A DNA stretch of 64,000 nt from an uncultured Candidatus Saccharibacteria bacterium (GTDB taxonomy: Bacteria; Patescibacteriota; Minisyncoccia; Minisyncoccales; Staskawiczbacteraceae). The position numbers and the translations under genes are program-made. Of this stretch, positions 2,778 to 63,952 are shown piece by piece. The notes under the pieces are model-generated. The model worked only from the letters and a program-made list of their open reading frames with translations. It ran no database searches and was not told where the DNA came from. The stretch lies in NCBI GenBank assembly GCA_964475855.1, contig CAYZAV010000002.1:51933-115932 (forward strand), read 5' to 3'. Within the stretch, counting starts at the first letter, position 1, and each line of letters starts with the position of its first letter.

Positions 2778-2848
2778 CGCTGATATTTGATACTATCAAT
2801 ATACTATCCTATCTTTCAATATTTTACAATACCTGGTATAAATCATAT

Positions 2849-3472
2849 ATGGATATCCTCATAACTATCTTTTCCTTAATCGTTTTGCTATTCTCGGTCA
2901 TTATCCACGAACTGGCACATGGTAGCGTGGCCTATTCACTGGGGGACCCGACAGCAAAATATGAAGGCCGCCTGACGTTTAACCCCATTAAACATCTGGA
3001 CCCGTTTGGTTCCATCATTTTGCCCCTCCTTCTATTTATAAGCGGCAGTTCAGTTTTGGTTGGCTGGGCCAAACCAGTACCCATTAACCCCTATAATTTT
3101 CGCGATCAAAAATGGGGTAGCCTAAAGGTAGCCATTGCCGGGCCAGCTTCCAATATAGTGCTAGCCTTGTTTTTTGGCCTTGCCATCCGTTTTTTGCCCG
3201 TCAGTTTTTTTGTGGCAGTTCCGGGAATACTTATCATTTTTTCTTTTATTGTGCAAATTAATTTGATGCTGGCATTTTTTAATTTAATCCCTATCCCGCC
3301 GCTGGACGGCCACTGGATTTTATTTTCTATCCTGCCTCCTGGTTTTGAGACGGCAAAAACTTTTTTACAACAGTACGGAATTTTCATCTTGATTTTCCTT
3401 ATTTTCATTGGCGCGCTGCAGGGCTTAAACACCATTGTGTTCAATCTTTTTTCACTTATTACAGGAATATAA
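2849..3472 (+). CDS. Site-2 protease family (M50) zinc metalloprotease, polytopic membrane protein
   Basis: HELAHG zinc motif in TM1 and a later PPLDGH motif. Start moved to ATG 2849 because 2747-2848 is the dispersed repeat. TGgTATAAA (2834-2842) lies 6 nt before the ATG. Confidence 0.75.
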   Translation: MDILITIFSLIVLLFSVIIHELAHGSVAYSLGDPTAKYEGRLTFNPIKHLDPFGSIILPLLLFISGSSVLVGWAKPVPINPYNFRDQKWGSLKVAIAGPASNIVLALFFGLAIRFLPVSFFVAVPGILIIFSFIVQINLMLAFFNLIPIPPLDGHWILFSILPPGFETAKTFLQQYGIFILIFLIFIGALQGLNTIVFNLFSLITGI

Positions 3473-3501
3473 TTGACATAGGAAAAAAGATTTGATAAGA
3501 T
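3473..3501 (+). promoter_or_regulatory. Sigma70-type promoter of rpsL; predicts a leaderless mRNA
   Basis: TTGACA(3473-3478)-17 nt-TAAGAT(3496-3501), then 7 nt to ATG 3509. Confidence 0.5.
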
Positions 3502-3508
3502 ACGTGCC

Positions 3509-3928
3509 ATGCCAACTATTCATCAATTAATCAAGAAACCCAGAAAGTCCGTTAAAGCCAAGAAAAAGGGTGTGGCTTTGCATTATGGGTTTAATACCTT
3601 GCAAAACCGGCCATCAATCTACCCTTCGCCATTCAAGCGGGGAGTATGTTTGAAGGTGTTTACCCAAACCCCAAGAAAACCAAACTCCGCTTTACGTAAA
3701 GTAGCCCGCGTAAAATTATCCAACGGTATGGAAGTTACCGCCTACATTCCCGGAGAAGGCCACAATTTACAAGAACACAGCGTGGTGCTTATTCGCGGAG
3801 GAAGGGTTAAGGATTTACCGGGAGTACGTTATCACATTGTCCGCGGCGTGCTTGATACGACAGGAGTGGAAAACAGGAAACAGGGAAGGAGCAGGTACGG
3901 AGCGAAAATGCCAAAAACTGATAAATAA
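3509..3928 (+). CDS. rpsL: 30S ribosomal protein S12
   Basis: [12 protein letters not shown]...[13 protein letters not shown] motifs; 139 aa. Confidence 0.97.
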
Positions 3929-7784: not shown

Positions 7785-7836
7785 GAACGCAAATAGGCTT
7801 GCGTGTTTAAACTAAAAAATATGATACAATAATCCC

Positions 7837-8169
7837 ATGGCAGAATATATTTTCATTATTATTTTAGCTGCAATATTGGTGGTACTGGTAGCTATTTTGT
7901 TTACCCTTTGGATTATGAAGGCAAAAATGGTTGTCGCGCCAACGGGGGGATCACCGCATCTTGATGTCCGAAGGCACACCAAACAGCACAATTTAGAACT
8001 GATTTTGGCCTTGTTTGCCAAATATCCAACGCTTACCAATATGATCATCCGTGAAGAACTGGGCTTTGACGACCGGGTGATTGTAAACTATATGGATGAG
8101 CTGGAAGCTATGGGTAAAGTACGACAAATAGGGGATACGGGCAAATACGTGCACTATGAATTGAGGTAG
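7837..8169 (+). CDS. Hypothetical membrane-anchored winged-helix-like protein
   Basis: N-terminal TM IFIIILAAILVVLVAILFTLWI. The C-terminal ~60 aa has a wHTH-like pattern (ELGFDDRVIVNYMDELEAMGKV). Confidence 0.5.
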   Translation: MAEYIFIIILAAILVVLVAILFTLWIMKAKMVVAPTGGSPHLDVRRHTKQHNLELILALFAKYPTLTNMIIREELGFDDRVIVNYMDELEAMGKVRQIGDTGKYVHYELR

Positions 8170-8232: not shown

Positions 8233-8260
8233 TTGACACGCTTGCTTGGATGGTTACAAT
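8233..8260 (+). promoter_or_regulatory. Promoter within a TTGTCAAATTTGACA palindrome; predicts a leaderless mRNA
   Basis: TTGACA(8233-8238)-16-TACAAT(8255-8260), then 6 nt to ATG 8267. Confidence 0.5.
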
Positions 8261-8266
8261 GGATAT

Positions 8267-8443
8267 ATGAACGTTACTAAATGCGATTTGTGCAAAAAAG
8301 AAATTAAGGAAAGCAGATATGCGGTTACCGTTCGCTTTGATTGGAAAGGTTATGAGTTTTGCAAGAACTGTCGCGTGCCCTTCGTAAAACTATTAGAGAA
8401 ACATAAACTTATTAAAAAAGAAGACAAAAAGCATGAAGAGTAA
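8267..8443 (+). CDS. Small zinc-ribbon protein (CxxC...CxxC)
   Basis: MNVTKCDLCKKE...EFCKNCRVPF. Start set at ATG 8267; the track start at 8246 is TTG. Confidence 0.5.
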   Translation: MNVTKCDLCKKEIKESRYAVTVRFDWKGYEFCKNCRVPFVKLLEKHKLIKKEDKKHEE

Positions 8444-15397: not shown

Positions 15398-15407
15398 ATT
15401 AACTAAC

Positions 15408-16019: not shown

Positions 16020-16045
16020 TAATCAGTAACAAGTAACGAGTAACT

Positions 16046-19567: not shown

Positions 19568-19572
19568 GAAGA

Positions 19573-22729: not shown

Positions 22730-22739
22730 ATTAGTAAGT

Positions 22740-22765
22740 CCTCGCTAAATCAGCGAGGCTTTTTT
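22740..22765 (+). terminator. Intrinsic terminator
   Basis: CCTCGCT-aaatc-AGCGAGG followed by cttttttc. Confidence 0.65.
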
Positions 22766-22794
22766 CTTGTAATAATTTTTGTTATAATTAATAT

Positions 22795-23517
22795 ATGAAA
22801 CCATTAATCGTAGCCAATTGGAAATTAAATCCTGAAACACAAAAAGAAGCAAAGGAGCTTTTTGATGCAGTGAAAAAGGGGGTGAAAAACGCTGCGGTTG
22901 AAGTGGTTATTTGTCCGCCGTTTATTTATTTGGCGGAGTTGCATGGTTTGCCGCTTGGAGCCCAAAATGTAGGACAGGAGGAAAAAGGTGCTTTTACGGG
23001 CGAAGTTTCGGCCATGCAATTAAAAGATATGGGGGTGGAATATGCGTTAGTGGGGCACTCTGAACGCCGCAACAAATTTTCTGAAACGGATGAAATGGCC
23101 AACCAAAAAATGCAGATTACATTGAAAGCAGGCTTAAAACCTATTCTATGTATCGGCGAAAAAGAAGGCGAAGATAAAGCAGGAGTTATTGATCGGCAAA
23201 TCACCATTGCACTAAAGGGTATTTCTTTAAAAGAGTTAAAACACATTGTCATTGCCTATGAACCTGTCTGGGCTATTGGTACGGGCAAAAATTGCGGCGT
23301 TAATGAAACGTTGTCTTCTATTTTATTGGTGCGAAAAATCTTGACTAATTTATATAAAAGGGAAGCGGCTGATGCTATGCGTATTCTCTATGGCGGCAGT
23401 GTCAAAGCCGAAAATTCGGCAGCTTATTTGAAAGAAGCTGGCACTAATGGCCTTTTGGTGGGTGGATCATCACTAAAGGCGGAAGAATTTATTGCTATTG
23501 TAAAGTCGGCACAGTAG
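22795..23517 (+). CDS. tpiA: Triosephosphate isomerase
   Basis: ANWKLN, GHSERR, AYEPVWAIGTG motifs. TATAAT(22783-22788) lies 6 nt before the ATG. Confidence 0.95.
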   Translation: MKPLIVANWKLNPETQKEAKELFDAVKKGVKNAAVEVVICPPFIYLAELHGLPLGAQNVGQEEKGAFTGEVSAMQLKDMGVEYALVGHSERRNKFSETDEMANQKMQITLKAGLKPILCIGEKEGEDKAGVIDRQITIALKGISLKELKHIVIAYEPVWAIGTGKNCGVNETLSSILLVRKILTNLYKREAADAMRILYGGSVKAENSAAYLKEAGTNGLLVGGSSLKAEEFIAIVKSAQ

Positions 23518-23552
23518 TTTGACATTCTTGTCTTCCGGCGTATATTGAAGGC

Positions 23553-24086
23553 ATGGAATCAGGAATAAAAAATGGCCAATTTTTCAGCCCGTCAAAGGGT
23601 AATTTGGGGTTTGACGCAGTTATCAAAGAAATTTTTGAGTATATTTCCGCCGAGCCCGGATTTTTTTACGACATTGTAGTGGGGTGCGATTCGCCTTCCA
23701 TTGATAAGCCGTTTTTTCCCATTGCCATTGTTGTTTTGCGAAAAGGGCAGGGTGGACGGTTTTTCCTTAAAAAAATGCAGTACCCAGATGCTTATTTAAA
23801 ACGCTTTACGGATGTGAAGCGTAACTGGAAACAGCGCATTTTGCAAGAAGTATATTTAAGTTGCGAACTGGCGCTGGAATTGCGCGAAACGTTAGAACGG
23901 GAATTCGGTGCGGCGCGGGCCGGCTTTAATTATCAATTTGCCTATATTCACGCCGACGTGGGAGAACATGGCAAAACCAAAGAAATGGTGCGCGAAGTTA
24001 CCGGGCTTATCAAAGGCCACGGTTTTGAACCGAAAATAAAACCATTTTCATTCGCGGCTTCGGTGGTGGCTGATAGATATACCTAA
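23553..24086 (+). CDS. YkuK/DUF458-like RNase H-fold protein
   Basis: The pattern F.SPSKGNL.F...I..GCDS...AIVV.RKGQGG...IKP.SFAASVVADRYT resembles the B. subtilis YkuK family (recalled from memory). Confidence 0.5.
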   Translation: MESGIKNGQFFSPSKGNLGFDAVIKEIFEYISAEPGFFYDIVVGCDSPSIDKPFFPIAIVVLRKGQGGRFFLKKMQYPDAYLKRFTDVKRNWKQRILQEVYLSCELALELRETLEREFGAARAGFNYQFAYIHADVGEHGKTKEMVREVTGLIKGHGFEPKIKPFSFAASVVADRYT

Positions 24087-25033: not shown

Positions 25034-25089
25034 ATGGTGCGGATCGCTGTAATTTGCGGAAACCGTCAAGATTTAGTAGTATAAGGTAT

Positions 25090-26802
25090 ATGAAATCCGC
25101 AGAACTTCGCCAAAAATTCCTGGATTTTTTTGAGAAAAAGGGGCATACAATTGTCTCTAGCGCTTCTTTAATTCCTGCAGAAACGGGAGCTGGGCAAAAG
25201 ACATTATTTATTACGGCGGGAATGCAGCCTTTGATACCGTTTTTATTAGGGGAAACGCATCCCGGGGGCAAGAGAATTGTTAATATTCAAAAATGCTTCA
25301 GGACCATTGATATTGATGAAGTCGGCGATGATACACATAACACTTTTTTCCAAATGTTGGGAAATTGGTCGCTGGGGGACTATTGGAAAAAAGAATCTAT
25401 TTCCTGGAGTTTTGAATTTTTAACGAAAGAATTGAATATTCCAATAGAAAAATTGGCAGTTTCTTGTTTTATTGGTGATGAACATGCGCCAAAAGATAAA
25501 GAGTCCGCTGAAATCTGGGAAAGCTTGGGAGTTACGAAAGAAAGAATCGCTTTTTTGCCAAAAGAGGATAACTGGTGGGGTCCGGTTGGAGAAACCGGTC
25601 CGTGCGGCCCCGACACAGAGATTTTTTATTGGAAAGCAAATGATGTGCCCGTGCCAAAAGAATTTGATTCGACTAATAAAAATTGGGTTGAGATTTGGAA
25701 TAATGTTTTCATGCAATATGTTAAGGATACCAATGGCAACTATGTTTTGGCAGAACAAAAAAATGTAGATACGGGTATGGGCTTTGAAAGGACGCTGGCT
25801 ATTTTGAATGGTTTTGAAAATATATACGAAACAGATTTGTTTGCGCCGGTTATGCATTTATTCCCAGGTCATGTTGATGAACGTAAAAAACGGATTATCG
25901 CCGACCACGCCAGGGCATCGGTATTTTTAATTTCAGATGGGGTGATTCCTTCAAATAAAGACCAAGGATATATATTGCGAAGATTGTTAAGAAGAATGAT
26001 GGTACATATGCGAGGCATTGAGCACGATATCTTTGAGCCGATTAAGAAAAATATAGAAATATACCAAGAAATATATGCTTTAGATGAGGGTAAAATTATA
26101 CCGGTAGTTAAAGAAGAGGCCGAGAAATTTGAAAAAACATTGGCGGCAGGATTAAAAGTGATTGAAAAAATAACCACTATTACCGGCAAAGAAGCTTTTT
26201 TACTCTATGAAACATATGGTTTTCCATTGGAAGTTTTAGAAGAAATACGCGAAGTTGTAAATCGAGAAGATTTTTTTGAAGAGTTAAAAAAACACCAAGA
26301 ATTATCTCGCACTGCTTCTGTGGGAATGTTTAAAGGGGGACTGGCGGATCATGATCCAAAAACTATAACATTGCACACAGCGCACCATTTGCTGTTGGCG
26401 GCTTTGCAGCAACTGTTAGGGTCAGAAGTAAAGCAAAAAGGCAGTAATATTACGCAAGAACGGTTACGGATTGATGTTTCGCTTGGGCGGAAAATTACCA
26501 AAGAAGAATTATTGGAGGTGGAAAATTTGGTTAATGAAAAAATTTCTGGCGCTCTGGATGTGGTAAAAAAAGAAATGTCGCTTTCGGAGGCACAGCAAAT
26601 TGGTGCAGAAATGGAATTTGGTGTAAAATACGGTAATACGGTGTCAGTTTACTTTATAGAAGAAAAAGATGGCACGTCGTTTAGTAAAGAATTTTGCGGC
26701 GGCCCGCATGTAAAAAATACATCGGAAATAGGTAAGTTTAAGATAATAAAAGAAGAAGCTTCTTCGCAGGGGGTGAGGAGGATAAAAGCAATCTTAGAGT
26801 AA
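25090..26802 (+). CDS. alaS: Alanyl-tRNA synthetase, compact form (570 aa, no C-Ala domain)
   Basis: MKSAELRQKFLDFFEKKGH start. Editing motifs HTAHHLL and CGGPHV. Start set at ATG 25090 with TTGCGG-17-TAGTAT-7 nt upstream. Confidence 0.9.
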   Translation: MKSAELRQKFLDFFEKKGHTIVSSASLIPAETGAGQKTLFITAGMQPLIPFLLGETHPGGKRIVNIQKCFRTIDIDEVGDDTHNTFFQMLGNWSLGDYWKKESISWSFEFLTKELNIPIEKLAVSCFIGDEHAPKDKESAEIWESLGVTKERIAFLPKEDNWWGPVGETGPCGPDTEIFYWKANDVPVPKEFDSTNKNWVEIWNNVFMQYVKDTNGNYVLAEQKNVDTGMGFERTLAILNGFENIYETDLFAPVMHLFPGHVDERKKRIIADHARASVFLISDGVIPSNKDQGYILRRLLRRMMVHMRGIEHDIFEPIKKNIEIYQEIYALDEGKIIPVVKEEAEKFEKTLAAGLKVIEKITTITGKEAFLLYETYGFPLEVLEEIREVVNREDFFEELKKHQELSRTASVGMFKGGLADHDPKTITLHTAHHLLLAALQQLLGSEVKQKGSNITQERLRIDVSLGRKITKEELLEVENLVNEKISGALDVVKKEMSLSEAQQIGAEMEFGVKYGNTVSVYFIEEKDGTSFSKEFCGGPHVKNTSEIGKFKIIKEEASSQGVRRIKAILE

Positions 26803-30119: not shown

Positions 30120-30180
30120 CATGGAGCACGTGATATGGAACAATTAACCTAAGGTTATGTTTCATGTTTCATGCTTCATG
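30120..30180. repeat. Word-built inverted repeat (catg/gtttcat words) between rpsD and rpoA
   Basis: catggagcacgtgatatggaacaattaacc-taa-ggttatgtttcatgtttcatgcttcatg. Confidence 0.6.
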
Positions 30181-30190
30181 ATTAAAGTAT

Positions 30191-30970
30191 ATGATACCGC
30201 TACCAGTAGCGCCAATTGTAATCAAAAAAGGCAAAAACCAAGCCGTTTTTGAAGTGCAGGGATTGTATCCTGGTTATGGGGTAACCGTGGGAAACACTTT
30301 GCGCAGAGTATTGCTTTCCTCATTGGAGGGCGTAGCTGTTACCGAGGTGAAAATCAAAGGCGTGGCACACGAATTTTCCACCATTGCCGGCGTGCAGGAA
30401 GATGTGATTATGATTTTGTTGAACCTGAAAAATTTAAGGTTTAAAATACACGAAGGCACCACCCAAAAAGTGATACTTTCAGTAAAAGGTGAAAAAGAAG
30501 TGACCGGGGCCGATTTTGCACTTTCACCACAGGTGAAACTGGCGAATCCAGAGCTTCATATTGCCACCATTACTGATAAAAAAACTGAATTGGAAATTGA
30601 GATAAAAATTGAAAAAGGAATTGGGTATGAGCCAAAGGATCATCGGAAAATAAAAAGCACGGAAATTGGAGCGATTATATTGGATGCTATTTTTACACCG
30701 ATTAAAAACGTTAATTTTCAAGTGGAAAGCATGCGTATCGGCGACCGGACCGACTTTGACAAGTTATCACTTCAGATGGAAACCGACGGAACTCTGACCC
30801 CAGAAGAAGCGTTCTACGAAGCGTGCGATATTATCATCAAACACTTCAGTATTATTTTCGAAGGAAAAGGAATGGTAATGCCTGAAGCGATAACAGAAGG
30901 AGGGGAAGAAGAAAAACCGGCCAAAAAAGCAGCTGCCAAGAAAAAAGCGGTTGCTAAGAAAAAGAAATAA
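30191..30970 (+). CDS. rpoA: DNA-directed RNA polymerase alpha subunit, N-terminal domain only (259 aa, Lys-rich tail, no CTD)
   Basis: NTD motifs GNTLRRVLLSS, FTPIKNVNFQVE, RIGDRTDFDKL. Ends ...EEEKPAKKAAAKKKAVAKKKK*. Confidence 0.9.
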   Translation: MIPLPVAPIVIKKGKNQAVFEVQGLYPGYGVTVGNTLRRVLLSSLEGVAVTEVKIKGVAHEFSTIAGVQEDVIMILLNLKNLRFKIHEGTTQKVILSVKGEKEVTGADFALSPQVKLANPELHIATITDKKTELEIEIKIEKGIGYEPKDHRKIKSTEIGAIILDAIFTPIKNVNFQVESMRIGDRTDFDKLSLQMETDGTLTPEEAFYEACDIIIKHFSIIFEGKGMVMPEAITEGGEEEKPAKKAAAKKKAVAKKKK

Positions 30971-32797: not shown

Positions 32798-34162
32798 TTA
32801 CGGCACCAACTTTTCGGAAATCACCAAGGTCCTTTCAGTTAACAAATACACTTTTTTATCTCGGTCGCTGAAAAATATGGTTGGGTTTTTTATTTCAATA
32901 TTCAGCGTAGTGCCAGTGGTATCAATCACGGAAATAGTTTTTGGCAGCGGTGCCACGTTTACATTTCCACGGGCGTCAATTTCGGAAATAATAACACTGT
33001 CTTCTGCGGTAAATATCACGTAATCATTGTTGAACCAATGAACTTCGCTGATGGTGGCGGTAACATTGCCTAGTGATATTTTCCCGGCTACAGGCTCTTT
33101 TAAGATAGTGTAGAATATTTCGTGTGGAGTAAAAAAGGTAATTTTTTCCTGATCAGGGGAAAGCTTCAAACCCTGTACTTGTTCAAAAAATGGCACGAAC
33201 ATATTATTGGCACGGTCCAGGGAAAAGGTGCTATCGCCCTGCTTCAAAAACACCATGTCATCAAGGACCACCAAGCTATAATTAGCAGTTTTTTGGATCG
33301 TAAATGCCTGATTAGTAAGCTTGGTGCTTGTTACGCCAAGCAGGGTGGTTTGATATAAAAATCCATCATAGGAAAAAACTACGAGATTGTTTCCGGTCGT
33401 TGCATACGTCGCTATATTTTTTACCAACGGCGCTGCCGCAAGCGATGAATAAAGATTTTTATCTTTGATGAAAAACAATTCAGTGCTATTGTCCGGGTTA
33501 AATGAAACTTGCCGGACTTGTTTGAGTGCTGGTAGGGGAGTAATGGCAAGAGTATCGGCCAATATATCCAGTAAAAAATAACTGCCGGAAAGAGTGACAA
33601 GCGCTTTTTTTGAATCGTTTGACCAGGTAATACTGGCTATTTTCCCATGTACCGCCGCCAGGCTATAGGTTTTTGCTGGCCTGTTGTTTTGCGCGCCCAC
33701 TTCAAATTCAATAGTGTTTTTGGTAATAATAGCTGTCAGTAGTGTGATTTGGTCGGGGGCAAGCGAGAAATAATCCACGTTATTTTTTGCTAAACTGAAG
33801 GCGGGACTTTCTTTAAATAATATTACCTCTTCCAGTTTAGTAACTTCACTGTCTTTTACGGGTAAGGTTTTTTGATAACTGATGTAGGCATCTTTTTTAA
33901 TGCTTACCGAATGATTGCCGTGTACCAGGTTTTGGACAAAAATAGAGGGATTAAAATAGGTGGTCCTTTCTGAAGGTTGCGTATCAATGGAAATTTCTGC
34001 GCCGGTGGGAATTGCCTTGACATAAATGCCGCCGGTGGAAATAATTTCATGGTTGATAAAATCAAATCGGTAGCCCAGGGCATAAAAAACAAGCAGTGGG
34101 GTAGCTGCTAAAAAGACCAGGGCGCAACTAGCCAGAATCAATAAACGGGTTCTTAGTTTCAT
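32798..34162 (-). CDS. Membrane-anchored PEGA-domain protein with a beta-rich extracytoplasmic region
   Basis: N-terminal TM. PEGA-like GGIYVKAIPTGAEISID...GNHSVSIKKDAYISYQKTL. Confidence 0.6.
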   Translation of the reverse strand: MKLRTRLLILASCALVFLAATPLLVFYALGYRFDFINHEIISTGGIYVKAIPTGAEISIDTQPSERTTYFNPSIFVQNLVHGNHSVSIKKDAYISYQKTLPVKDSEVTKLEEVILFKESPAFSLAKNNVDYFSLAPDQITLLTAIITKNTIEFEVGAQNNRPAKTYSLAAVHGKIASITWSNDSKKALVTLSGSYFLLDILADTLAITPLPALKQVRQVSFNPDNSTELFFIKDKNLYSSLAAAPLVKNIATYATTGNNLVVFSYDGFLYQTTLLGVTSTKLTNQAFTIQKTANYSLVVLDDMVFLKQGDSTFSLDRANNMFVPFFEQVQGLKLSPDQEKITFFTPHEIFYTILKEPVAGKISLGNVTATISEVHWFNNDYVIFTAEDSVIISEIDARGNVNVAPLPKTISVIDTTGTTLNIEIKNPTIFFSDRDKKVYLLTERTLVISEKLVP

Positions 34163-34193
34163 GCGGTTATCCTAGCAGAAAGAGGGGTATATT

Positions 34194-39898: not shown

Positions 39899-39936
39899 CT
39901 CTTTTATTGCGACTATCGTTTTGCTACAATGATGCC

Positions 39937-40719
39937 ATGAACCAGTTGGAATTTTTGAAGAAAATGTGGGATGGTGGGCAATTGGCTCATGCTTATATTT
40001 TTTCGGGGGCTGACATGGTGGGGTTGAAAAAAGCGGCCAATGAATTGCTCGGACATGCCGGCTGTAAATTTCCGGATGTGATTACACTTTCCAGTGCGCA
40101 AAGCGACAGTTCCATTAAAAATGAAAAGGATATGATGGAAATCGATATTGATCAGATTCGTCGTGTCCAGCAATTTTTATCATATAAATCATATAACGGG
40201 GGACTGAAAGCCGTGGTGGTTGAACATGCAGAACGGATGAACGTCGAAGCCCAAAACTGTTTTTTGAAAAATTTGGAAGAACCAAAGGGCCAGACATTGA
40301 TCATGTTATTATGCGACAAGCCTGAATATTTATTGCCCACCATTGCCTCACGCTGTCAGACAATCCGGTTTTCCGCAAAAAGCGAAGCGCAAGAAGCAGT
40401 ATTGCCCCAAGTTTTGCAAAATGTAATTAATGGGGACTTGGCTGAAAAATTCAAGTTTGCCAAAACAGCCAACCTGGAGGGAGAAAATTTCGAGAATATG
40501 TTAGCGGGTCTACAGCGACATTTTCGGAATTTACTTCTGGATAAAATCCAGGGAGAGACTAATCTACCTGCCTCGCCGGCAGGCGGGCGAATTACATCCG
40601 AATATACGAATGAAAAGATGGTATCGGTACTGCGGCAGATTGAAACATTGCAGCACCAGGCGGCAACCACCAATCTTAATAACAAACTGGCATTGGAAAT
40701 ATTATTACTTGAGTTATAA
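39937..40719 (+). CDS. holB: DNA polymerase III delta' subunit
   Basis: LAHAYIFSG..., NCFLKNLEEP, LPTIASRCQ motifs. Start at MNQLEFL. Confidence 0.8.
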   Translation: MNQLEFLKKMWDGGQLAHAYIFSGADMVGLKKAANELLGHAGCKFPDVITLSSAQSDSSIKNEKDMMEIDIDQIRRVQQFLSYKSYNGGLKAVVVEHAERMNVEAQNCFLKNLEEPKGQTLIMLLCDKPEYLLPTIASRCQTIRFSAKSEAQEAVLPQVLQNVINGDLAEKFKFAKTANLEGENFENMLAGLQRHFRNLLLDKIQGETNLPASPAGGRITSEYTNEKMVSVLRQIETLQHQAATTNLNNKLALEILLLEL

Positions 40720-40791
40720 AGTTCATAAAGTTATAAAGTTCATAAAGATACGAAGAACTTTAAAAACTTTACGAACTTTCAAACTTTATAA
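40715..40791. repeat. Word-built inverted repeat (aaagtt 9-mers)
   Basis: ttataaagttcataaagttataaagttcataaag pairs with actttaaaaactttacgaactttcaaactttataa. Paired aaagtt cores are separated by 3-nt mismatches. Confidence 0.6.
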
Positions 40792-40800
40792 TTAAAATTT

Positions 40801-41358
40801 ATGGCAGCACTAAAAGAATTTATGGATCGGGCAAAGCCGGAATTTGAAAAGGCAATCAAATTTTTGGAGGGTGAAATAGCCAAAATCCGCACATCGCGGG
40901 CGACTCCGGCGTTAATTGAAGACATTGAGGTTGATTGTTTTGGTCAAAAATTTTCCCTAAAACAGTTAGCGGCCATTTCCGCGCCTCAATCAAACCAACT
41001 GGTTATTCAACCTTGGGATCAGTCATATATAGAACCGATTGAGAAAGCCATTTTAAAATCCGGCCTTGGCATGTCGGCGGCGGTTGATAAAAATTTGATC
41101 CGGTTGAGCCTGCCCACACTGACGGAGGAATATCGCCACAGTCTGGTGAAGGTGCTCAATGAAAAAGCGGAAGATTGCCGACAGGTGCTGCGCCGCCAGC
41201 GCGAAGATATTTGGAACAAAATCCAGGCTGCCCAAAAAACCAAAGATCTTTCCGAAGACGATAAATTCCGAGGCAAAGATGAATTACAGAAACTGATTGA
41301 CGAATTTAATAAAAAAATCAAGGAATTAGTGGAGAGAAAAGAACAGGAAGTCTCCTAG
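40801..41358 (+). CDS. frr: Ribosome recycling factor
   Basis: 185 aa, IRTSRATPALIEDIEVD pattern. Confidence 0.93.
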   Translation: MAALKEFMDRAKPEFEKAIKFLEGEIAKIRTSRATPALIEDIEVDCFGQKFSLKQLAAISAPQSNQLVIQPWDQSYIEPIEKAILKSGLGMSAAVDKNLIRLSLPTLTEEYRHSLVKVLNEKAEDCRQVLRRQREDIWNKIQAAQKTKDLSEDDKFRGKDELQKLIDEFNKKIKELVERKEQEVS

Positions 41359-42562: not shown

Positions 42563-42660
42563 CAGCGAATTTGCTAATATATTACGAATTTACGAATGTG
42601 GCGAACGAGCGATCACGTAAAGTGTATTCGTAAATTCGTAACTAATTCGTAAATTCGTTG
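42563..42660. repeat. Word-built inverted repeat (ttcgtaaa words), related to 15309..15397
   Basis: cagcgaatttgctaatatattacgaatttacgaatg pairs with tattcgtaaattcgtaactaattcgtaaattcgttg. Confidence 0.6.
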
Positions 42661-42668
42661 ATGATACT

Positions 42669-44990: not shown

Positions 44991-45019
44991 ATAACCACGC
45001 ACAAACTGTGCGTGGTTAT
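44991..45019. repeat. ACGCA/TGCGT hairpin family member
   Basis: ataaccacgcaca-aac-tgtgcgtggttat (13-bp stem). Confidence 0.6.
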
Positions 45020-45036: not shown

Positions 45037-45065
45037 TTGAGGAAAATGGTGAGTTTTGCTAGAAT
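45037..45065 (+). promoter_or_regulatory. Promoter of gatCA; predicts a leaderless mRNA
   Basis: TTGAGG(45037-45042)-17-TAGAAT(45060-45065), then 6 nt to ATG 45072. Confidence 0.55.
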
Positions 45066-45071
45066 AATATT

Positions 45072-45356
45072 ATGATTTCAAAAGAAGACGTACAGCATAT
45101 TGCCAAGTTGGCGCGATTGGAACTGGGTCAGCAAGAAGCGATAAAAATGCAGCAGGATATGTCGGCGATTTTAGATTATTTTGATTTGTTGAAAAAAGCG
45201 CCAAAAGTTACAAAGGTTACAAAAGTGACAAAGGTAAAAAATAATGGATTGCGCGACGATAAGGTGGGGCAACAAAATAGTGCTTTGGCGGGAGAACTAA
45301 TCAATGCCGCGCCGGATAAAAAGGATGGATATGTCAAAGTTAAGGCAATACTATAA
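45072..45356 (+). CDS. gatC: Glu/Asp-tRNA amidotransferase subunit C (contains a KVTKVTKVTKV repeat)
   Basis: 94 aa, VQHIAKLARLEL...ILDYFD..., precedes gatA. Confidence 0.88.
   Translation: MISKEDVQHIAKLARLELGQQEAIKMQQDMSAILDYFDLLKKAPKVTKVTKVTKVKNNGLRDDKVGQQNSALAGELINAAPDKKDGYVKVKAIL
45207..45233 (+). repeat. Three tandem in-frame 9-bp units (same family) inside gatC
   Basis: gttacaaag gttacaaaa gtgacaaag, translated (K)VTKVTKVTK. Confidence 0.8.
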
Positions 45357-47766: not shown

Positions 47767-48165
47767 ATGATACCGCGTTTAAAGAAAAAAAACCAGAAAC
47801 ATCCGTATAAAAAGATGCTGATAATGCTTGGCGGAGTTTGTCTTTTACTGATTGCCACCGGGTTGGTGGTGGCTAGTATTAATATGTACCAAAAAAAACG
47901 TGAGCTTTCTTACCAAGTCAAAAGCCTGGAAAATAAAATGCTCCAAATGCAGCAAAAAAACCAGGAACTCAAGCAAGGCATTGCAAAATCCGACGATGAG
48001 CAGTATATAGAAAAGGTGGCGCGCGAAGAACTTGACCTGCAAAAACCGGGGGAAAAAGTATTTTCATTTATCCGGGCAGAAAAGGAAGCGTCCGCAGAGG
48101 TAGAACAATCAGTAAATTTTTGGCAAGCATGGGTCGCCTGGGTTGCGGGTATTGTTCAGTGGTAG
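47767..48165 (+). CDS. FtsB/DivIC-like septum formation initiator
   Basis: N-terminal TM, coiled coil, VAREELDLQKPGEKVF motif. The 3' end overlaps tRNA-Gly by 21 nt. Confidence 0.65.
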   Translation: MIPRLKKKNQKHPYKKMLIMLGGVCLLLIATGLVVASINMYQKKRELSYQVKSLENKMLQMQQKNQELKQGIAKSDDEQYIEKVAREELDLQKPGEKVFSFIRAEKEASAEVEQSVNFWQAWVAWVAGIVQW

Positions 48166-48215
48166 AATGCGACCTTCCCAAGGTCGAGACACGGGTCCGA
48201 TTCCCGTTACCCGCT
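48145..48215 (+). tRNA. tRNA-Gly (CCC)
   Basis: Hand-folded cloverleaf: acceptor gcgggta/tacccgc, anticodon loop ttCCCaa, T arm acggg-tccgatt-cccgt. No encoded CCA. Confidence 0.85.
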
Positions 48216-48230
48216 CAGGGTTTTTTGTGT

Positions 48231-48303
48231 GCCACCTTAGCTCAGTTGGCAGAGCACCACTTTCGTAAAGTGGGGGTCCGCGGTTCGATCCCGCGAGGTG
48301 GCT
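48231..48303 (+). tRNA. tRNA-Thr (CGT)
   Basis: Acceptor gccacct/aggtggc, anticodon loop ttCGTaa, T arm cgcgg-ttcgatc-ccgcg. Confidence 0.88.
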
Positions 48304-48423
48304 CCCTTGAAAATATAGGTTGACAATAAGGGGCATTAGGATAACATAGCTATAATAAGGCATATGGGAAAGTTTGTCATGATCGGCAAACTGATATGTC
48401 TTATGTGGTATAGGAGTTGCGCG

Positions 48424-48943: not shown

Positions 48944-48982
48944 AATTTTCACATTTTTAAAAAATATGGTAAAATTCCCAAT

Positions 48983-50057
48983 ATGGATACGAGGTTAACT
49001 ATTCAAGAGTTAGAGCAAAAGGTCCACGTATTGGTGGACCGGCTTTGATGTGGATAGCAAGGAAAAAGAGCTACAGGAGCTGGAGCGCCAGGCGGGCATG
49101 CCAGATTTTTGGAATGACCACGCCTCGGCGGCAGTAGTTAGTCAGCAGATTTCAGGATTAAAAGAAGAACTGCAAACGGTTGAAGCACTTAAAAAAGAAC
49201 TACAGGATTTAAAAGAGTTGAATGCTTTGGATCAGGTTGATGAAATGGCTTTTGTAAGTTTGAGAAAACGAATTGAAAAAGAAGAATTTCGGATTTTTTT
49301 AAGCGGCAAGCATGACAAAAGCAACGCCATTCTGGAAATTTTTTCGGGAGCGGGCGGAGTGGATGCCCAGGATTGGGTGACTATGGTATTAAGGATGTAC
49401 CAGCGTTATTGTGCGACAAAGGGGTTTGAGGTGAATATTTTGCACCAGTCGTTTGGCGAAGGCGGCGGGCCTGATGGGCGCATTGGTACCAAAAATGTGA
49501 CCTTAGAAATACGTGGAAAATATGCTTATGGTTTTTTGAAAAAAGAAGCGGGGGTGCATCGGTTGGTCAGGCAATCACCCTTTTCCGCCCAAAAATTACG
49601 TCATACTTCATTTGCTTTGGTGGAAGTGATGCCCGAGATTGAAGAAAGCGCAGAATTAGAGCTAAAACCGGAAGAATTGCGGGTTGATACGTTTCGCGCT
49701 TCCGGCCCCGGCGGGCAGTATGTTAATAAAACCGAATCGGCTATTCGCATTACACATATTCCCACCGGCATTGCCGTTGCCAGCCAGTCTGAACGGAGTC
49801 AGGGCAGAAACCGCGAGCACGCCATGAAAATTTTATACTCAAAACTACACCAACTAAAAGAACAGCAGCACAAAAAAGAATTGAAAGAAATAAAAGGCGA
49901 CAGCGTCAGTGCAAGTTGGGGAAACCAGATCAGAAGTTATGTGCTACACCCATATAAAATGGTCAAAGATTTACGTACCCAATATGAAACTTCCCAGGCA
50001 GAAAAAGTATTGGACGGTGATTTGGAGGAATTCATTCAGGCTGAACTAAAAATATAA
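48983..50057 (+). CDS. prfB: Peptide chain release factor 2, requires a programmed +1 frameshift at CTT TGA (49043-49048)
   Basis: ORF0 is MDTRLTIQELEQKVHVLVDRL, ending at stop TGA 49046-49048. The +1 frame continues DVDSKEKELQ..., with SPF and GGQ motifs downstream. Confidence 0.9.
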
Positions 50058-51829: not shown

Positions 51830-51963
51830 CAGTCTAGGCCTACCGAGACGGGTCATAAAACCCGCTCGGTAACCAGATTCTTTTCCTTTGATAGCAAACC
51901 GGCTGAGCGCCGCATTCAGAACAGAAATTCGCCCAAAAGGCGATTTTTTGTTAGAATCAACTT

Positions 51964-52434
51964 ATGAAGATGAGCAACTTTCTTAAATTAATCACCTGTG
52001 TCATTGTTTCAGAAGCGGCCGGAGTCATTGGCTCTTTTTTTACTGTTTCCGCCATCCCAACTTGGTACGCAACGCTTCAAAAGCCTCCGCTCAATCCTCC
52101 TGGATGGCTTTTCGGCCCTGTCTGGGTGACCCTTTATTTATTGATGGGTATCTCACTATGGTTGATTTGGAAAAGCAACGCCAAAGAAAAGAAAAAAGCA
52201 CTATGGCTATTTTTTGCCCAGTTAATATTAAATGCCATTTGGTCACCAGTATTTTTCGGGGTGCAATCAATTGGCGGATCGTTGGCGATCATTGTACTTC
52301 TGTGGGTTGTCATTGTTTTGACGATTCTGGTATTCACTAAAATATCAAAAACTGCGGCTTGGCTGTTGATTCCATATATTCTCTGGGTAAGTTTTGCCGC
52401 GTATTTAAATTTTGGTATTTGGATTTTAAATTAA
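51964..52434 (+). CDS. tspO: TspO/MBR family tryptophan-rich sensory protein
   Basis: WYATLQKPPLNPPGWLFGPVWVTLYLLMG... 5-TM pattern. Confidence 0.85.
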   Translation: MKMSNFLKLITCVIVSEAAGVIGSFFTVSAIPTWYATLQKPPLNPPGWLFGPVWVTLYLLMGISLWLIWKSNAKEKKKALWLFFAQLILNAIWSPVFFGVQSIGGSLAIIVLLWVVIVLTILVFTKISKTAAWLLIPYILWVSFAAYLNFGIWILN

Positions 52435-56521: not shown

Positions 56522-56543
56522 AATCACCCGACGGGTGATTTTT
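56522..56543 (+). terminator. Intrinsic terminator
   Basis: AATCACCC-gac-GGGTGATT followed by ttt. Confidence 0.6.
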
Positions 56544-56574
56544 GTTTAGGACTATCTTTGATATAATAAGTGGC

Positions 56575-58094
56575 ATGGAAATCAATTGGTATTCAAAATC
56601 AATTTCTGATGTCTTGGATGGGCTTGTCTCCAGTCAACAAGGGTTGGATGCAAAAGAAGCGGATGCAAGATTGAAGCAGTACGGAAAAAATACTTTGCCG
56701 GAAGGAAAACCTGACGGACTTTTGATTATTTTTTTGCGGCAATTTAAAAGCCCCTTGATCTATATTCTTTTGGCTGCCGGAGTGGTGGTTTTTTCATGGG
56801 AGAAACGGTTGATTCTTTGATTATTTTGGCGGTACTTATCTTTAATGCCGTAGTGGGAACGGTGCAAGAAGGCAGGGCTCAAAACACCCTAATGGCACTA
56901 AAAAAATACACGGTAAAAAAAACCGTTGTGGTGCGTGACGGCAGGGAAATCATTTTGAAGGGCGAAGATATTGTTCCTGGTGACGTTATTATTCTGCAAG
57001 AAGGTGAGAAGATTCCGGCTGATGCGCGGGTTATGGTATCAAATAATCTTAAGGTAGACGAGTCTGCATTTACCGGTGAATCAACTCCGATTCACAAAAT
57101 TGCCGAACCATTGCACGGAGAGCATATATCCGTTGCCGAACAGAAAAATAGCATTTTCAAAGGAACCCACATTGTTTCGGGAAATGGCAGGGCGGTGGTG
57201 GTAGCCACGGGAATTAACACCCAGCTAGGAAAAATAGCTAAGCAAATTTCAGCCATAGATACGGAAATACCACTGAAGGCGAATATCCGTTATTTGTCCC
57301 GCGCTATTATTTTGGTAGTTGCGGTTATGAATATTATACTGCTCGGCACAGGATTATTTTTGGGCAAAGGCTTAAAAGGGGTAGTAGATGCTGTAGAATA
57401 CTTCGCTGGGAATACGAAATTGGTTTCTGACTTAAAGCTTTCTTTTGAGGCAAATAATATTCAGACAGAAACATTGCAGGGGAAGACTCCTATTATTCTT
57501 GCAAGCAAGAAAGAAGTTATCGCTGTCATAATGGTTGCTGATGCAATTAAGCCAGAAGCTATTGAGGCTGTTAGAAATCTGCACAAGCTTGGCATTAAAA
57601 CGGTTATGCTTACAGGAGACAGTAAAAATACCGCCAGTGCTATTGCCAAAGAGGTGGGTATTGATGAAGTGATTGCGGAGGTGCTCCCTGAAGACAAGTT
57701 AAATACCATAAAAGAATTTCAAAAGAAAGGAAGAATAGTTGCTATGGCTGGAGACGGGGTTAACGATGCCCCCGCACTTGCACAGGCTGATGTGGGTATT
57801 GCTATGGGAACAGGAACTGATGTAGCCATAGAAACTGCTGGAATTACGCTTCTTAATGGCGACATTTCAAAATTGGTAAAAGCCTTAAAGCTTTCAAAAA
57901 TGACGATGCGGGGCATTAGGCAAAACTTATTCTGGGCTTTTATTTATAACTTAGTTGGTATTCCTCTTGCCGCAGGTTTATTTTTCCCAATATTCGGTTG
58001 GACACTAAACCCTATTTTTGCTGGTCTTGCCATGGCTTTCTCAAGCGTAAGTGTGGTAAGCAACAGTTTGCGTATTAAAACAAAAAAGCTATAA
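56575..58094 (+). pseudogene. Degraded chimeric P-type ATPase: P2-type N-terminus joined to a P1B (CopA-like) C-terminus, frameshifted, no DKTGT
   Basis: Cation_ATPase_N-like start and TGES A-domain. Frameshift at the T6 run 56789-56794. From about nt 57366 the sequence switches to the CopA-like GIKTVMLTGD...GDGVNDAPALAQADVGIAMG...NLFWAFIYN. No DKTGT or PEGL anywhere. Confidence 0.7.
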
Positions 58095-59661: not shown

Positions 59662-60264
59662 CTATTTTACGAAAAATCTTTTAGTGCCGTACGTATATAT
59701 GATGGCCAGGGCGCCGGTGATGCCATAGAAAATCCAGATGATGCGCAAGGGGGGCGATTGCAAATCGCTGCCCAAATTCAAGGAATGGAAAAAACTTAAC
59801 AAAAACCCCAGATTGCTAGTGATTAATACTTTTTGCCAGTGTTTGGCGAAAAATCCCTGCTGTTTGAAGGGTTTTGTGATGTCGTAAACGATAAGCAGTA
59901 ACCAGGAAATAATGCCAAGCCAGATATATAGCGTGCCATAGTAAAAAAAGATATTGCTTACGCTATAGCCAACCCCGGCAAACAGCAATATCGGGTGCAG
60001 GCCAAAGCAAAGTAAAATAAGTTTGGCAGTAATATTAACAAACCGGTCAAAATTGATGTGCTGGCGCAGCCAGGGTTCAAACACACCACTGATGGAATGT
60101 AGCCATAACATGGAAACCGCAGCCAGCCCAAGAAGTGGGAATATATTCAAGGAAATGTTAGTAATTTCCATTTGCCATTGCAAATGTTGGGCGCGCACCC
60201 AAAGCGGGTAACATACCGCCAACCAACCAAAAGCGATAATGAAATATTTTGGAAATTTGTTCAT
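59662..60264 (-). CDS. Hypothetical polytopic membrane protein (about 6 TM, several conserved His)
   Basis: 200 aa, hydrophobic throughout. Confidence 0.5.
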   Translation of the reverse strand: MNKFPKYFIIAFGWLAVCYPLWVRAQHLQWQMEITNISLNIFPLLGLAAVSMLWLHSISGVFEPWLRQHINFDRFVNITAKLILLCFGLHPILLFAGVGYSVSNIFFYYGTLYIWLGIISWLLLIVYDITKPFKQQGFFAKHWQKVLITSNLGFLLSFFHSLNLGSDLQSPPLRIIWIFYGITGALAIIYTYGTKRFFVK

Positions 60265-60298
60265 GGGTTTATATTATCATATGTGGTATATTTCAGCT

Positions 60299-61168
60299 AT
60301 GAATAAGTTAATAGTATATTTGATAGTGGGACTGGTTTTTTGCATGCCAGTGGCGACAAACGCGCAAACTCCCCTGGAGCAGCAAATTTTGGTATTGCAA
60401 ACAAAAATCAAGCAACTGCAATTATTGCTGGCTGACATGGTTTTGCAAGAACAAACTTCGGCTGGTTCATATATTGCCGTTGATGTATTAGACGGCTCGG
60501 TTATTTCCGCTAAAAATAGCGTAGGGAAATTTCCCATTGCTTCTATTACTAAATTAATGACTGCCGCTGTGATAGTTGAGAATACTGATCTTAGTCAAAC
60601 AGTTACCTTGACTGAAGACATGCTGCGGCCAGAAGGATACAGTCCATCGCTATTTTTAGGGGCAACGGTAACCGTAAAAGATCTTTTGTGTGCCATGTTA
60701 ATCCAGTCAACGAATGATGCGGCCCAAGCTCTGGCTTATGCTGCCGGGCACGAAACATTTATAGAAAAGATGAACCAGAAGGCGGGGGACCTTGGTATGG
60801 TTGATACCCATTTTGAAGATGCCCACGGGCTCGGCCTACAAAACCGATCTACGGCGGCTGACCTGGCTAAATTAATTACGTATATATATCAAAACCATCC
60901 GGAGCTGTTTAGCACAACCAAGGATAATAACTTTTGGTTACCGGATTCGGACGGCCGATTGCTAAAATTCCAAAACTTGAATGTATTTTACAAAAACCCT
61001 GATTTTATTGGCGGCAAAACGGGGTATTTGATTGAAGCGCGCCAGTCCATCGCTTCGGTTTTTACGGTGAAGGGCAGGCCAGTGGCAATTATGTTGCTAT
61101 ATTCCGAGCATCGGCAGGCGGATATTTTAAAAATCATTGAATTTCTAAAAATACCGACCCACTTTTGA
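60299..61168 (+). CDS. D-alanyl-D-alanine carboxypeptidase (S11, PBP5-like)
   Basis: SITK (SxxK), STN (SxN), KTG motifs. Signal peptide from ATG 60299. TGgTATATT lies 6 nt upstream. Confidence 0.82.
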   Translation: MNKLIVYLIVGLVFCMPVATNAQTPLEQQILVLQTKIKQLQLLLADMVLQEQTSAGSYIAVDVLDGSVISAKNSVGKFPIASITKLMTAAVIVENTDLSQTVTLTEDMLRPEGYSPSLFLGATVTVKDLLCAMLIQSTNDAAQALAYAAGHETFIEKMNQKAGDLGMVDTHFEDAHGLGLQNRSTAADLAKLITYIYQNHPELFSTTKDNNFWLPDSDGRLLKFQNLNVFYKNPDFIGGKTGYLIEARQSIASVFTVKGRPVAIMLLYSEHRQADILKIIEFLKIPTHF

Positions 61169-61204
61169 CTTATGCACGTTTTTTTGGTAAAGTTTGCTTA
61201 ACGT

Positions 61205-62405: not shown

Positions 62406-62433
62406 TTGATTTTTTCGGGGCACAGAGTACACT
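62406..62433 (+). promoter_or_regulatory. Promoter of ftsZ; predicts a leaderless mRNA
   Basis: TTGATT(62406-62411)-16-TACACT(62428-62433), then 7 nt to ATG 62441. Confidence 0.45.
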
Positions 62434-62440
62434 ATACATA

Positions 62441-63952
62441 ATGGCAAAGCCCAAGAAAAAAAAGAAACTAGTGCTTGCACGAAAAAAACCGGTAAAAAAA
62501 CCGAAAAAAGTTTTAGTAAAGAAAAAACCGATTACCAAGAGAATAAAAGCCAAGACCTTCCGCGGAGTTTCGCGTAAAATTCAGATTGATTCCGCGCCGG
62601 TAGCAGCCTTTCCGGCGGAGGCATTTTTCAAGGCGAAAATAAAAGTAATTGGCATTGGCGGGGGAGGTGGGTCTATTGTTTCCGAAATTGGCAGGTCTTT
62701 GAACAAGGCCACATTTGTGGTGGCGGATACTGATGAACGCGCGTTTAAAAAACGCCAGGGCATCAAACAGTTTTTATTCGGCCAGGAATTGACACATGGT
62801 TTGGGTACCGGATTAAACACCGACTTGGCACAGCGGGCCGCTGAAAGTGAAAAAGAAAATATCGCTAAATTATTTGACGGCCAGGATATTGTTATTTTTA
62901 TCGCCTGTTTGGGCGGAGGATTAGGAAGTGGTGCCACCCAAATATTCGCCGAGGCGGCCAAAGATTTCGGGGGAATTACCTTTGGTATTTTTACGCTGCC
63001 ATTTAAATTTGAAGGCAAAAACAAGCAAAAAATCGCAGCCAAGGCGTTGCGGGAACTACGTAAATCACTTAATGTTTCCATTACTATTCCCAACGAGCGT
63101 ATTTTTAAAATCATCCAGGAAAACACGGCCATTACTGATGCGTTCAGTACGGTTAACCGCAGCCTGATAGAATCGTTGGAAAGTTTGATAGATTTGATTT
63201 ACAATCCCGGTGTCATTAATATTGACTTCGCCGATCTGCGCGCTATTTTAAAGGGACGGGGGAATTTGGCGTTTTTAAATACGGCCGAGGCTTCCGGGGC
63301 TAATAGGGCGGATACCATCATTCATGAAATTTTGCATAACCCCCTATACCAAAGTAATAATTTTTCCGCCGAAAAAGTGCTATTTAACATTGCGAGCGGG
63401 GGAAATTTAAGCATGTTTGAGGTGGATAAAATAAGCCGGGTCATTTCTGAACATAACCAGTCCGCCAAGATTATTTTCGGGATTTCCAAAGACAATTCTC
63501 TGAAAAATAAAATCAAGACGACGCTGCTCATGACGGGGGCACCGCTTGGGGTGGAGCCCGATGCTACAAAGGTTACAAAGGTTGCAAAGGTGGCAGAGGT
63601 CGCAAAGGCTCCGGAAGCTACAAAGGTGACAAAGGCTACAAAAGTGGCAAAGACCACAAAGGTGGCAAAGGTGGTCTCGCCTTCGCCTAAGGCTTCGGCG
63701 AAACAAAGAAAGAAAAAAGTGGTGCCGGCGTCAAAAACCCCACCGCTTCAAAATGTTCCCGTTTTTTCCAATGTGTACGAGCCGGCCGAAAATTCGCGTA
63801 AATTGAGCATTGTTGAGCCACCACAGAAAAAAGCCATCAGGCGCACAGCATTGGAAGTGAAAAAAGCCGAAGAAATACAAGAACAAAGGCAATCCGATCA
63901 GGAAAAAGAGTGGGAAATTCCAGCATTTTTAAGAAAAATAAAGATCAAATAA
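62441..63952 (+). CDS. ftsZ: Cell division protein FtsZ with a ~60-aa Lys-rich N-terminal extension and a repeat-built C-terminal linker
   Basis: GIGGGGGS, ACLGGGLGSGA tubulin-signature region. C-terminal peptide EWEIPAFLRK. Confidence 0.9.
   Translation: MAKPKKKKKLVLARKKPVKKPKKVLVKKKPITKRIKAKTFRGVSRKIQIDSAPVAAFPAEAFFKAKIKVIGIGGGGGSIVSEIGRSLNKATFVVADTDERAFKKRQGIKQFLFGQELTHGLGTGLNTDLAQRAAESEKENIAKLFDGQDIVIFIACLGGGLGSGATQIFAEAAKDFGGITFGIFTLPFKFEGKNKQKIAAKALRELRKSLNVSITIPNERIFKIIQENTAITDAFSTVNRSLIESLESLIDLIYNPGVINIDFADLRAILKGRGNLAFLNTAEASGANRADTIIHEILHNPLYQSNNFSAEKVLFNIASGGNLSMFEVDKISRVISEHNQSAKIIFGISKDNSLKNKIKTTLLMTGAPLGVEPDATKVTKVAKVAEVAKAPEATKVTKATKVAKTTKVAKVVSPSPKASAKQRKKKVVPASKTPPLQNVPVFSNVYEPAENSRKLSIVEPPQKKAIRRTALEVKKAEEIQEQRQSDQEKEWEIPAFLRKIKIK
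63563..63670 (+). repeat. Twelve tandem in-frame 9-bp units (GTKRCAAAG family) inside ftsZ
   Basis: gctacaaag gttacaaag gttgcaaag gtggcagag gtcgcaaag gctccggaa gctacaaag gtgacaaag gctacaaaa gtggcaaag accacaaag gtggcaaag. Confidence 0.85.

Follow-up and report, generated by a model that had tools for sequence, protein, structure and literature searches.

The window analyzed here, a 64,000-nt stretch of contig CAYZAV010000002.1 from an uncultured bacterium belonging to the Candidate Phyla Radiation (CPR), has a G+C content of ~0.43 and holds nearly all of its genes on the plus strand. Downstream of mreB lies a compact promoter-start module for gatC, in which an extended -10 box stands 6 nt before the gatC start codon, and similar modules precede other genes that open transcription units. 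The original prediction, made from the letters of the window, was that many first genes are transcribed as leaderless mRNAs that begin at or next to the start codon. All 11 upstream strings on which it drew, with their -10 hexamers and their spacings to the ATG (6, 7, 6, 6, 7, 8, 6, 7, 7, 6, and 7 nt), are present as quoted, and the five quoted combinations of -35 hexamer and spacer are also present exactly. Seven further candidates bring the number in the window to 18, and the gene gap, just outside the window, supplies a 19th.

The gene calls that we used were made independently and are the public ones for a 404-kb metagenomic contig that carries the sequence of the window (ENA ERZ27247820, k141_502662). 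They span window positions -7151 to 73952 (81 kb, one genome) and comprise 94 genes, which we divided into 60 first genes, recognized by a divergent neighbor or by 30 nt or more of preceding gap, and 34 operon-internal genes. The candidates therefore amount to ~30% of transcription units (18–19 of ~60 first genes in 81 kb), so that the "many" first genes of the original prediction hold up as a non-random pattern but not as most units. Every one of the 19 candidates starts with ATG, which is not discriminating because 90 of the 94 genes do so as well. No -10 box was found within 8 nt of the ATG of tuf, rplC, secY, rpoA, eno, and others, and these genes appear to be leadered and likewise without a Shine–Dalgarno (SD) motif.

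Spacing and promoter elements of first genes

To place the -10 boxes relative to start codons, we counted hexamers of the form TAnnnT upstream of all genes. Of the 60 first genes, 17 have such a hexamer ending 6–7 nt before the start, where the other spacings predict 5.95 (Poisson p 1.6e-4); it is thus commoner at this distance than at neighboring ones. For the extended form TGnTAnnnT, the corresponding figures are 10 of 60 and 0.25 (p 2e-13). The comparison with shuffled controls that the original prediction had called for, run here on the 81 kb, gave the same peak at 6–7 nt: when the upstream regions were shuffled 2000 times with dinucleotides preserved, neither the TAnnnT nor the TGnTAnnnT count was ever reached. 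Among the internal genes, the two motifs occur at 6–7 nt in only 3 of 34 and 0 of 34 cases. The peak also emerges without any gene calls. The pattern TGNTANNNT-N6-ATG occurs 11 times in the window versus 2.46 ± 1.41 times in shuffled sequence (0 of 100 shuffles reach 11), and eight of the 11 matches are gene starts, as are all three matches with a 7-nt gap; a control gap of 10 nt gave one match versus 2.34 in shuffles.

Other approaches were less informative. A de novo expectation–maximization motif search over the 60 upstream regions converged at width 9 on an uninformative A-rich motif, and at width 12 on TggTAAAATtCa, whose end falls 3–4 nt short of the ATG at the candidates already known; its occupancy parameter was saturated, so that this lends weak support. 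We set aside a generic promoter/terminator scan as too noisy to serve as evidence (68 promoter-like sites versus 45 expected), and we also discarded the Y(-1)R(+1) start-site rule as a discriminator, because a pyrimidine occupies -1 in 16 of 18 candidates but also in 55 of 76 other genes.

The elements themselves have the makeup of promoters. In an extended -10 promoter, a TG one base upstream of the -10 hexamer makes up for a -35 that is poor or missing. Of the 19 candidates, 12 carry TGn, and three have a perfect TTGACA at 16–17 nt, versus 0.5% of background TAnnnT hexamers. Perfect or good -35 hexamers without TGn are found at the zinc-ribbon gene, the RNaseH-like gene, and ftsZ, whereas promoters with TGn mostly match only two or three of six positions at -35. 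This inverse relation is the classic sigma-70 trade-off and supports the view that the elements would behave as sigma-70 promoters. TGnTAnnnT also precedes tRNA-Ile (by 11 nt) and tRNA-Gln (by 17 nt) and is therefore not a translation signal. Just upstream of the start codon, A at -3 occurs in 3 of 18 candidates versus 42 of 76 other genes (p 0.004), a deficit to be expected if the bases before these ATGs are not transcribed. In the 7-nt cases, the -1 base is a pyrimidine in six of seven (all but ftsZ), which favors a transcript start at the A of the ATG.

Hairpins further delimit the promoters. Terminator-type hairpins (z -3.3 to -5.9) end 6–30 nt before the -10 box at gatC, tpiA, tspO, the P-type ATPase fragment (ATPase_N), and frr, leaving no room for another promoter. 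Several of them are followed by T-tracts, and the one at tspO extends into the TGn. The 67-nt stretch containing the hairpin between mreB and gatC has a minimum free energy z of -4.2. In-frame stop codons lie within or just after the -10 box at gatC and tpiA, and because the in-frame TAG of gatC sits inside the -10 box itself, no upstream gatC start is possible.

To examine conservation, we compared relatives whose GatA is 62–73% identical, the closest being Candidatus Staskawiczbacteria metagenome-assembled genomes (MAGs) together with other CPR MAGs. These GatA matches, drawn from species-representative genomes, assign the window to the Parcubacteria group of the CPR/Patescibacteria. TGnTAnnAT is kept 6–8 nt from the gatC ATG in five of them (L007, L008, L009, L012, and L013) while the flanks diverge; it is not kept in L010 and L011. 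Conversely, hyp179, divIC, and hyp105 have gained a -10 box near the ATG in some relatives, and TGnTAnnnT stands 5–8 nt from the start at 16 further open reading frame (ORF) heads across the CPR loci. The same script found the TGnTAnnnT arrangement at 2 of 541 ORFs in Firmicutes loci, and the spacing peak is absent in Firmicutes loci of similar G+C. In loci of Gastranaerophilales/Melainabacteria (L054, L067, L075, L076, and L078), TGnTAnnnT lies exactly 6 nt from the ATG in 3 of 95 first-ATG ORFs, which hints at some leaderless genes there too, although SD motifs are used in that group.

Table 1. Candidate promoter-start modules and associated features in the window; "added" marks candidates that were not in the original prediction.
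Feature	Positions	Strand	-35 and spacer	-10 box	Gap to ATG (nt)	ATG	Remarks
M50 peptidase	2834..2851	+		TGgTATAAA	6	2849	start as in public call
rpsL	3473..3511	+	TTGACA, 17 nt	TGaTAAGAT	7	3509	
Hypothetical 110-aa gene (hyp110)	7822..7839	+		TGaTACAAT	6	7837	added
Zinc-ribbon ORF (8267-8443)	8233..8269	+	TTGACA, 16 nt	TACAAT	6	8267	
tpiA	22780..22797	+		TGtTATAAT	6	22795	intrinsic terminator 22736-22761 and T-tract directly upstream
RNaseH-like gene	23519..23555	+	TTGACA, 16 nt	TATATT	6	23553	added
alaS	25054..25092	+	TTGCGG, 17 nt	TAGTAT	7	25090	
Hypothetical 454-aa gene (hyp454)	34160..34177	-	best TTGAAA (5/6)	TGcTAGGAT	6	34162	added
holB (DNA polymerase III delta')	39922..39939	+		TGcTACAAT	6	39937	added
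frr	40787..40803	+		TATAAT	8	40801	
Terminator-like hairpin after mreB	44991..45019	+					18 nt upstream of gatC -35; 13-bp stem, centroid -20.1 kcal/mol
gatC promoter-start module	45037..45074	+	TTGAGG (45037-45042), 17 nt	TGc (45057-59), TAGAAT (45060-65)	6 (AATATT)	45072	
Hypothetical 174-aa gene (hyp174)	48351..48366	+		TATAAT	7	48364	added
prfB ORF0	48967..48985	+	TTCACA (5/6)	TGgTAAAAT	7	48983	+1 frameshift site CTT TGA near 49043
tspO	51949..51966	+		TGtTAGAAT	6	51964	added; hairpin 51929-51943 abuts TGn
P-type ATPase N-terminal fragment (ATPase_N)	56559..56577	+		TGaTATAAT	7	56575	terminator hairpin 56524-56538 upstream
Hypothetical 200-aa gene (hyp200)	60262..60301	-		TGaTAATAT	6	60264	added
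PBP5-like gene	60262..60301	+		TGgTATATT	6	60299	
tRNA-Ile promoter (non-coding gene)	61165..61204	+	TTGACT, 17 nt	TGgTAAAGT			11 nt to mature 5' end at 61205
ftsZ	62406..62443	+	TTGATT, 16 nt	TACACT	7	62441	

The hyp200 and PBP5-like genes have divergent extended -10 promoters back to back within a 34-bp gap. An Rfam search returned four tRNAs only; neither leaders nor riboswitches turned up between the genes. The public calls also hold a 64-aa ORF at 48129-48323 that overlaps tRNA-Gly and tRNA-Thr (48145-48305) and is almost certainly spurious.

Translation context of the remaining genes

Core genes had been described as lacking SD motifs, and our counts bear this out. SD tetramers at -18 to -5 precede 8% of ORFs in the window versus 5% at a control position, and they are at background in all related CPR loci; the same script yields 50% versus 9% in Firmicutes and 57% versus 6% in Melainabacteria. 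Strong SD motifs occur in a few genes, several of them of higher G+C: the HTH gene at 24957 (minus strand), hyp70 at 32493, two Cu-oxidase-like genes, hyp115, and an ORF resembling the C-terminal domain (CTD) of the RNA polymerase alpha subunit. At 24957 (minus), 32493, 35882 (minus), 36812 (minus), and 22382, such motifs (AAGGAG, AGGAGG, or GGAGG) stand at normal spacing. This small set of SD-bearing genes may represent recent acquisitions. The contrast that the original prediction drew with SD-containing leaders in G+C-rich cassettes is accordingly borne out in part: strong SD motifs are indeed found in a few genes, only several of which are of higher G+C, and one gene of the cassette region, hyp454 (34162, minus strand), is itself a leaderless candidate.

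The alpha-CTD-like ORF (RNA_pol_A_CTD; 7163-7558, minus strand, 131 aa) lies 23 kb from rpoA (30191-30970, plus strand), whose 259-aa product comprises the alpha N-terminal domains only (RNA_pol_L plus insert domain) and no CTD. Because of its higher G+C (0.50) and an SD-like GAGG, the ORF may be foreign rather than part of a split native subunit.

The genes outside the candidate set share a different upstream context. Across the 76 non-candidate genes, A occupies -3 in 55% and the positions just upstream of the start are poor in G; in the 34 internal genes, A at -3 rises to 65% and G falls to 0–6% at -1 to -4, these being raw frequencies. This A-rich, G-poor context brings to mind the Kozak-like one that has been reported for Bacteroidetes. 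Since neither the internal genes nor the leadered first genes have SD motifs, and both lie in this context, translation initiation in this organism seems in general not to rely on SD/anti-SD pairing.

Two further observations concern prfB and the leaders of non-candidate genes. The prfB gene (48983-50057) has a programmed +1 frameshift (..VDRL, CTT TGA T; MDTRLTIQELEQKVHVLVDRL-stop), and no clear SD-like stimulator was found before the shift site (GGTGGACCGG), which would fit an organism without SD pairing. Several leaders of non-leaderless genes are built of short imperfect tandem repeats, among them CATGTTT/CATGAAG, ATTCGTAA, AGTAAC, AAAACTAA, and TTGTAAA. Such leaders lie at 19533-19572, 30150-30190, 15365-15407, 42625-42668, 13575-13598, and 16020-16045 and, beyond the window, at eno, gpm, gap, and trxB of locus L089. 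Different units are reused at different genes, and similar repeats occur in relatives (for example, TTGAAAA/TTGATAA in L013).

Weighing the leaderless reading

The reading that we favor, with a probability of roughly 80%, is that ~30% of transcription units in this genome are predicted to give leaderless mRNAs from sigma-70-type promoters positioned relative to the ATG. Every available in silico test supports promoters from which transcription would start at the ATG or directly beside it: the peak in spacing, the restriction of the extended motif to first genes, the promoter elements, the hairpins, and the conservation at gatC all favor what the original prediction had proposed from the placement of the -10 boxes.

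Several observations weigh against this reading. The analysis covers only 81 kb from a single genome, and the enrichment of plain TAnnnT is only ~3-fold. Conservation is patchy from gene to gene: L009, L010, and L013 do not share the arrangements seen at holB and frr. Individual cases differ in strength: M50 is weak, as its hexamer TATAAA lacks the conserved last T and an alternative TACAAT lies 18 nt upstream; alaS is weaker for a -35 matching only 3/6; frr is weaker for its 8-nt gap and its lack of both TGn and a -35; and hyp174 has an alternative TTGACA-16-TAACAT promoter that would give a ~17-nt leader. Some promoters follow the preceding gene closely (hyp454 by 31 nt, the RNaseH-like gene by 35, rpsL by 36, and ftsZ by 51), so that leadered transcripts from read-through could coexist with leaderless ones. 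Finally, neither the window nor any compared locus contains an rRNA gene, 16S included, and hence none contains a 16S 3' end with or without the anti-SD CCUCC.

These short gaps, together with the alternative upstream -10 boxes of M50 and hyp174, are also what speaks for the explanation that the promoters are real but that the dominant transcripts are leadered, arising by read-through or from promoters farther upstream, with the ATG-proximal boxes being secondary or internal and contributing little to expression. We consider this unlikely. Strong terminator hairpins stand directly upstream of gatC, tpiA, tspO, and ATPase_N, and other candidates come after long gaps or divergent genes (holB, 648 nt; hyp110, 278 nt; alaS; PBP5/hyp200). 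Moreover, the sharp peak at 6 nt implies selection on how far the box lies from the ATG, for which a secondary promoter would have no use.

The TA-rich motif might instead be an element of translation initiation, such as a non-SD ribosome-binding site or an A/U-rich enhancer of the kind seen in Bacteroidetes, located within a longer leader. A genome without SD motifs, in which other genes have an A-rich, G-poor upstream context, makes such an element conceivable. Yet its extended form is absent from all 34 internal genes, where such an element would be needed most, and the motif is accompanied by TGn and matched -35 hexamers, precedes tRNA genes, and is abutted by terminators; nor do the candidates share the A(-3) context seen elsewhere. 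On this evidence a role in translation is very unlikely.

Mis-annotated starts offer another way out: if the true start codons lay downstream, ordinary leaders would have been taken for coding sequence. FtsZ gives this some substance, because 62441-62635 encodes a 65-residue, very Lys-rich N-terminal extension (MAKPKKKKKLVLARKKPVKKPKK...) before the tubulin domain, and several candidates are hypothetical proteins without a family match. Many starts, however, are well anchored. Pfam profiles begin 2–5 residues from the proposed start in tpiA (residue 3 aligned to profile position 1), alaS (5 to 1), ATPase_N (5 to 1), and holB (3 to 5), and profile coordinates also back the N termini of tspO, frr, and gatC. 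The N termini of frr, gatC, and rpsL are canonical, and the MISKEEV of gatC is conserved across relatives. Independent calls agree: the public ones have the same start codons for M50, rpsL, tpiA, alaS, frr, gatC, the ATPase N-terminal fragment, PBP5, and ftsZ (9 of the 11 genes originally listed). Of the other two, the zinc-ribbon ORF is a clean CxxC...CxxC ORF absent from the public calls, and prfB is placed there at GTG 49050 because the +1 frameshift was not modeled. Wholesale misplacement of start codons is therefore highly improbable. Least credible is a chance origin, in which TAnnnT would be as frequent at this spacing as at any other in A+T-rich DNA and the examples merely selected: plain TAnnnT is indeed common (2385 in the window) and generic promoter scanning is noisy, but the Poisson probabilities, the shuffles, the gene-call-free count, and the lack of a peak in Firmicutes loci of similar G+C lead us to reject it.

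Proposed initiation and known systems

On the leaderless reading, the position of the -10 box matters because RNA polymerase ordinarily begins transcription ~7 nt beyond it, at a purine. In ~30% of units, the last T of the -10 hexamer of what would be a housekeeping sigma-70-type promoter lies 6–7 nt (range 5–8) before the start codon, with the promoter usually being an extended -10 TGnTAnnnT that would need little or no -35, or else a plain -10 with a good TTGACA. Given this behavior of RNA polymerase, we infer that the transcript would begin at the A of the ATG in the 6-nt cases and at the A or one base earlier in the 7-nt cases, and would thus be leaderless, a term that in experimental work covers 5' UTRs of 0–5 nt. 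In Escherichia coli, Mycobacterium, and Deinococcus, leaderless mRNAs are initiated by 70S ribosomes or by 30S-IF2-fMet-tRNA on the 5'-terminal AUG; by analogy, translation here would probably proceed by direct ribosome binding to the 5' AUG.

A broader possibility, to which we give slightly less than even odds, is that this Staskawiczbacteria-like lineage has a fully SD-free regime, in which about one-third of units are leaderless through extended -10 promoters placed on the ATG, and all other genes start translation through A-rich, G-poor surroundings or by re-initiating over very short gaps. Such a regime would combine features of the "leaderless" and "non-SD" classes of genome, and it might be connected with the reduced ribosome of CPR bacteria, in which the anti-SD has been lost in about half of Parcubacteria, bS21 is often absent, and bS1 is short.

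Translation start in CPR bacteria with reduced ribosomes is essentially unstudied. Our analysis reveals no new mechanism; if the leaderless reading is true, however, the modules of gatC, tpiA, and holB would offer promoter-start units for CPR expression tools, gene starts in CPR MAGs could be annotated better, and the lineage would allow leaderless and SD-independent initiation to be studied without a competing SD pathway. A full-text literature search turned up no paper connecting CPR, Patescibacteria, or Parcubacteria to leaderless mRNAs. Among 16S genes of Parcubacteria, Tsurumaki et al. (2022) detected the anti-SD motif in just 48%; they did not mention leaderless mRNAs (PMC9297842).

The closest known counterpart is group C of GeneMarkS-2, in which a Pribnow box lies 6–8 nt (about 10 bp) upstream of first-gene starts in 25–50% of operons (PMC6028130; PMC3160421). 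The present genome resembles it in the peak at 6–7 nt, in the restriction of TGnTAnnnT to first genes, and in the share of units (~30%). Group C consists mainly of Actinobacteria and Deinococcus-Thermus, and its remaining genes use SD sites. The present genome differs in both respects: it belongs to a Parcubacteria (CPR) lineage, and SD motifs are at background in all gene classes. The turnover of -10 boxes that we see between orthologues of related genomes has likewise been reported for "TA-led" genes by Zheng et al. (2011; PMC3160421). Group B (Bacteroidetes-type) has one non-SD motif before all genes and is not predicted to be leaderless. Our genome is similar in having no SD enrichment and an A-rich, G-poor context with A at -3 in its non-leaderless genes but differs in that TGnTAnnnT at 6–7 nt is restricted to first genes.

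In Mycobacterium tuberculosis, Cortes et al. (2013) found TANNNT 7–12 bp upstream of transcription start sites and 26% of genes with a primary start site to be leaderless (PMC3898074). Aminoacyl-tRNA synthetase genes are often leaderless in that organism, no ribosomal-protein gene is, and GTG starts are common; TGn occurs in only 7% of its -10 motifs, and no -35 is detectable (PMC3898074). The TANNNT spacing is shared by our candidates, as is the synthetase trend, here represented by alaS and gatC. Unlike in M. tuberculosis, the 19 candidates include 12 with TGn and some with a perfect TTGACA; ATG is their only start codon, and rpsL is one of them. The mycobacterial data are experimental, and ours are predictions. 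With extended -10 sigma-70 promoters in general, the candidates share the inverse relation between TGn and -35 quality, whereas here this type seems to be the majority promoter near genes and to be positioned relative to the start codon. What we describe is thus a known kind of gene organization in a lineage where it was undescribed, with some variant features, such as the absence of SD motifs and a strong reliance on extended -10 promoters.

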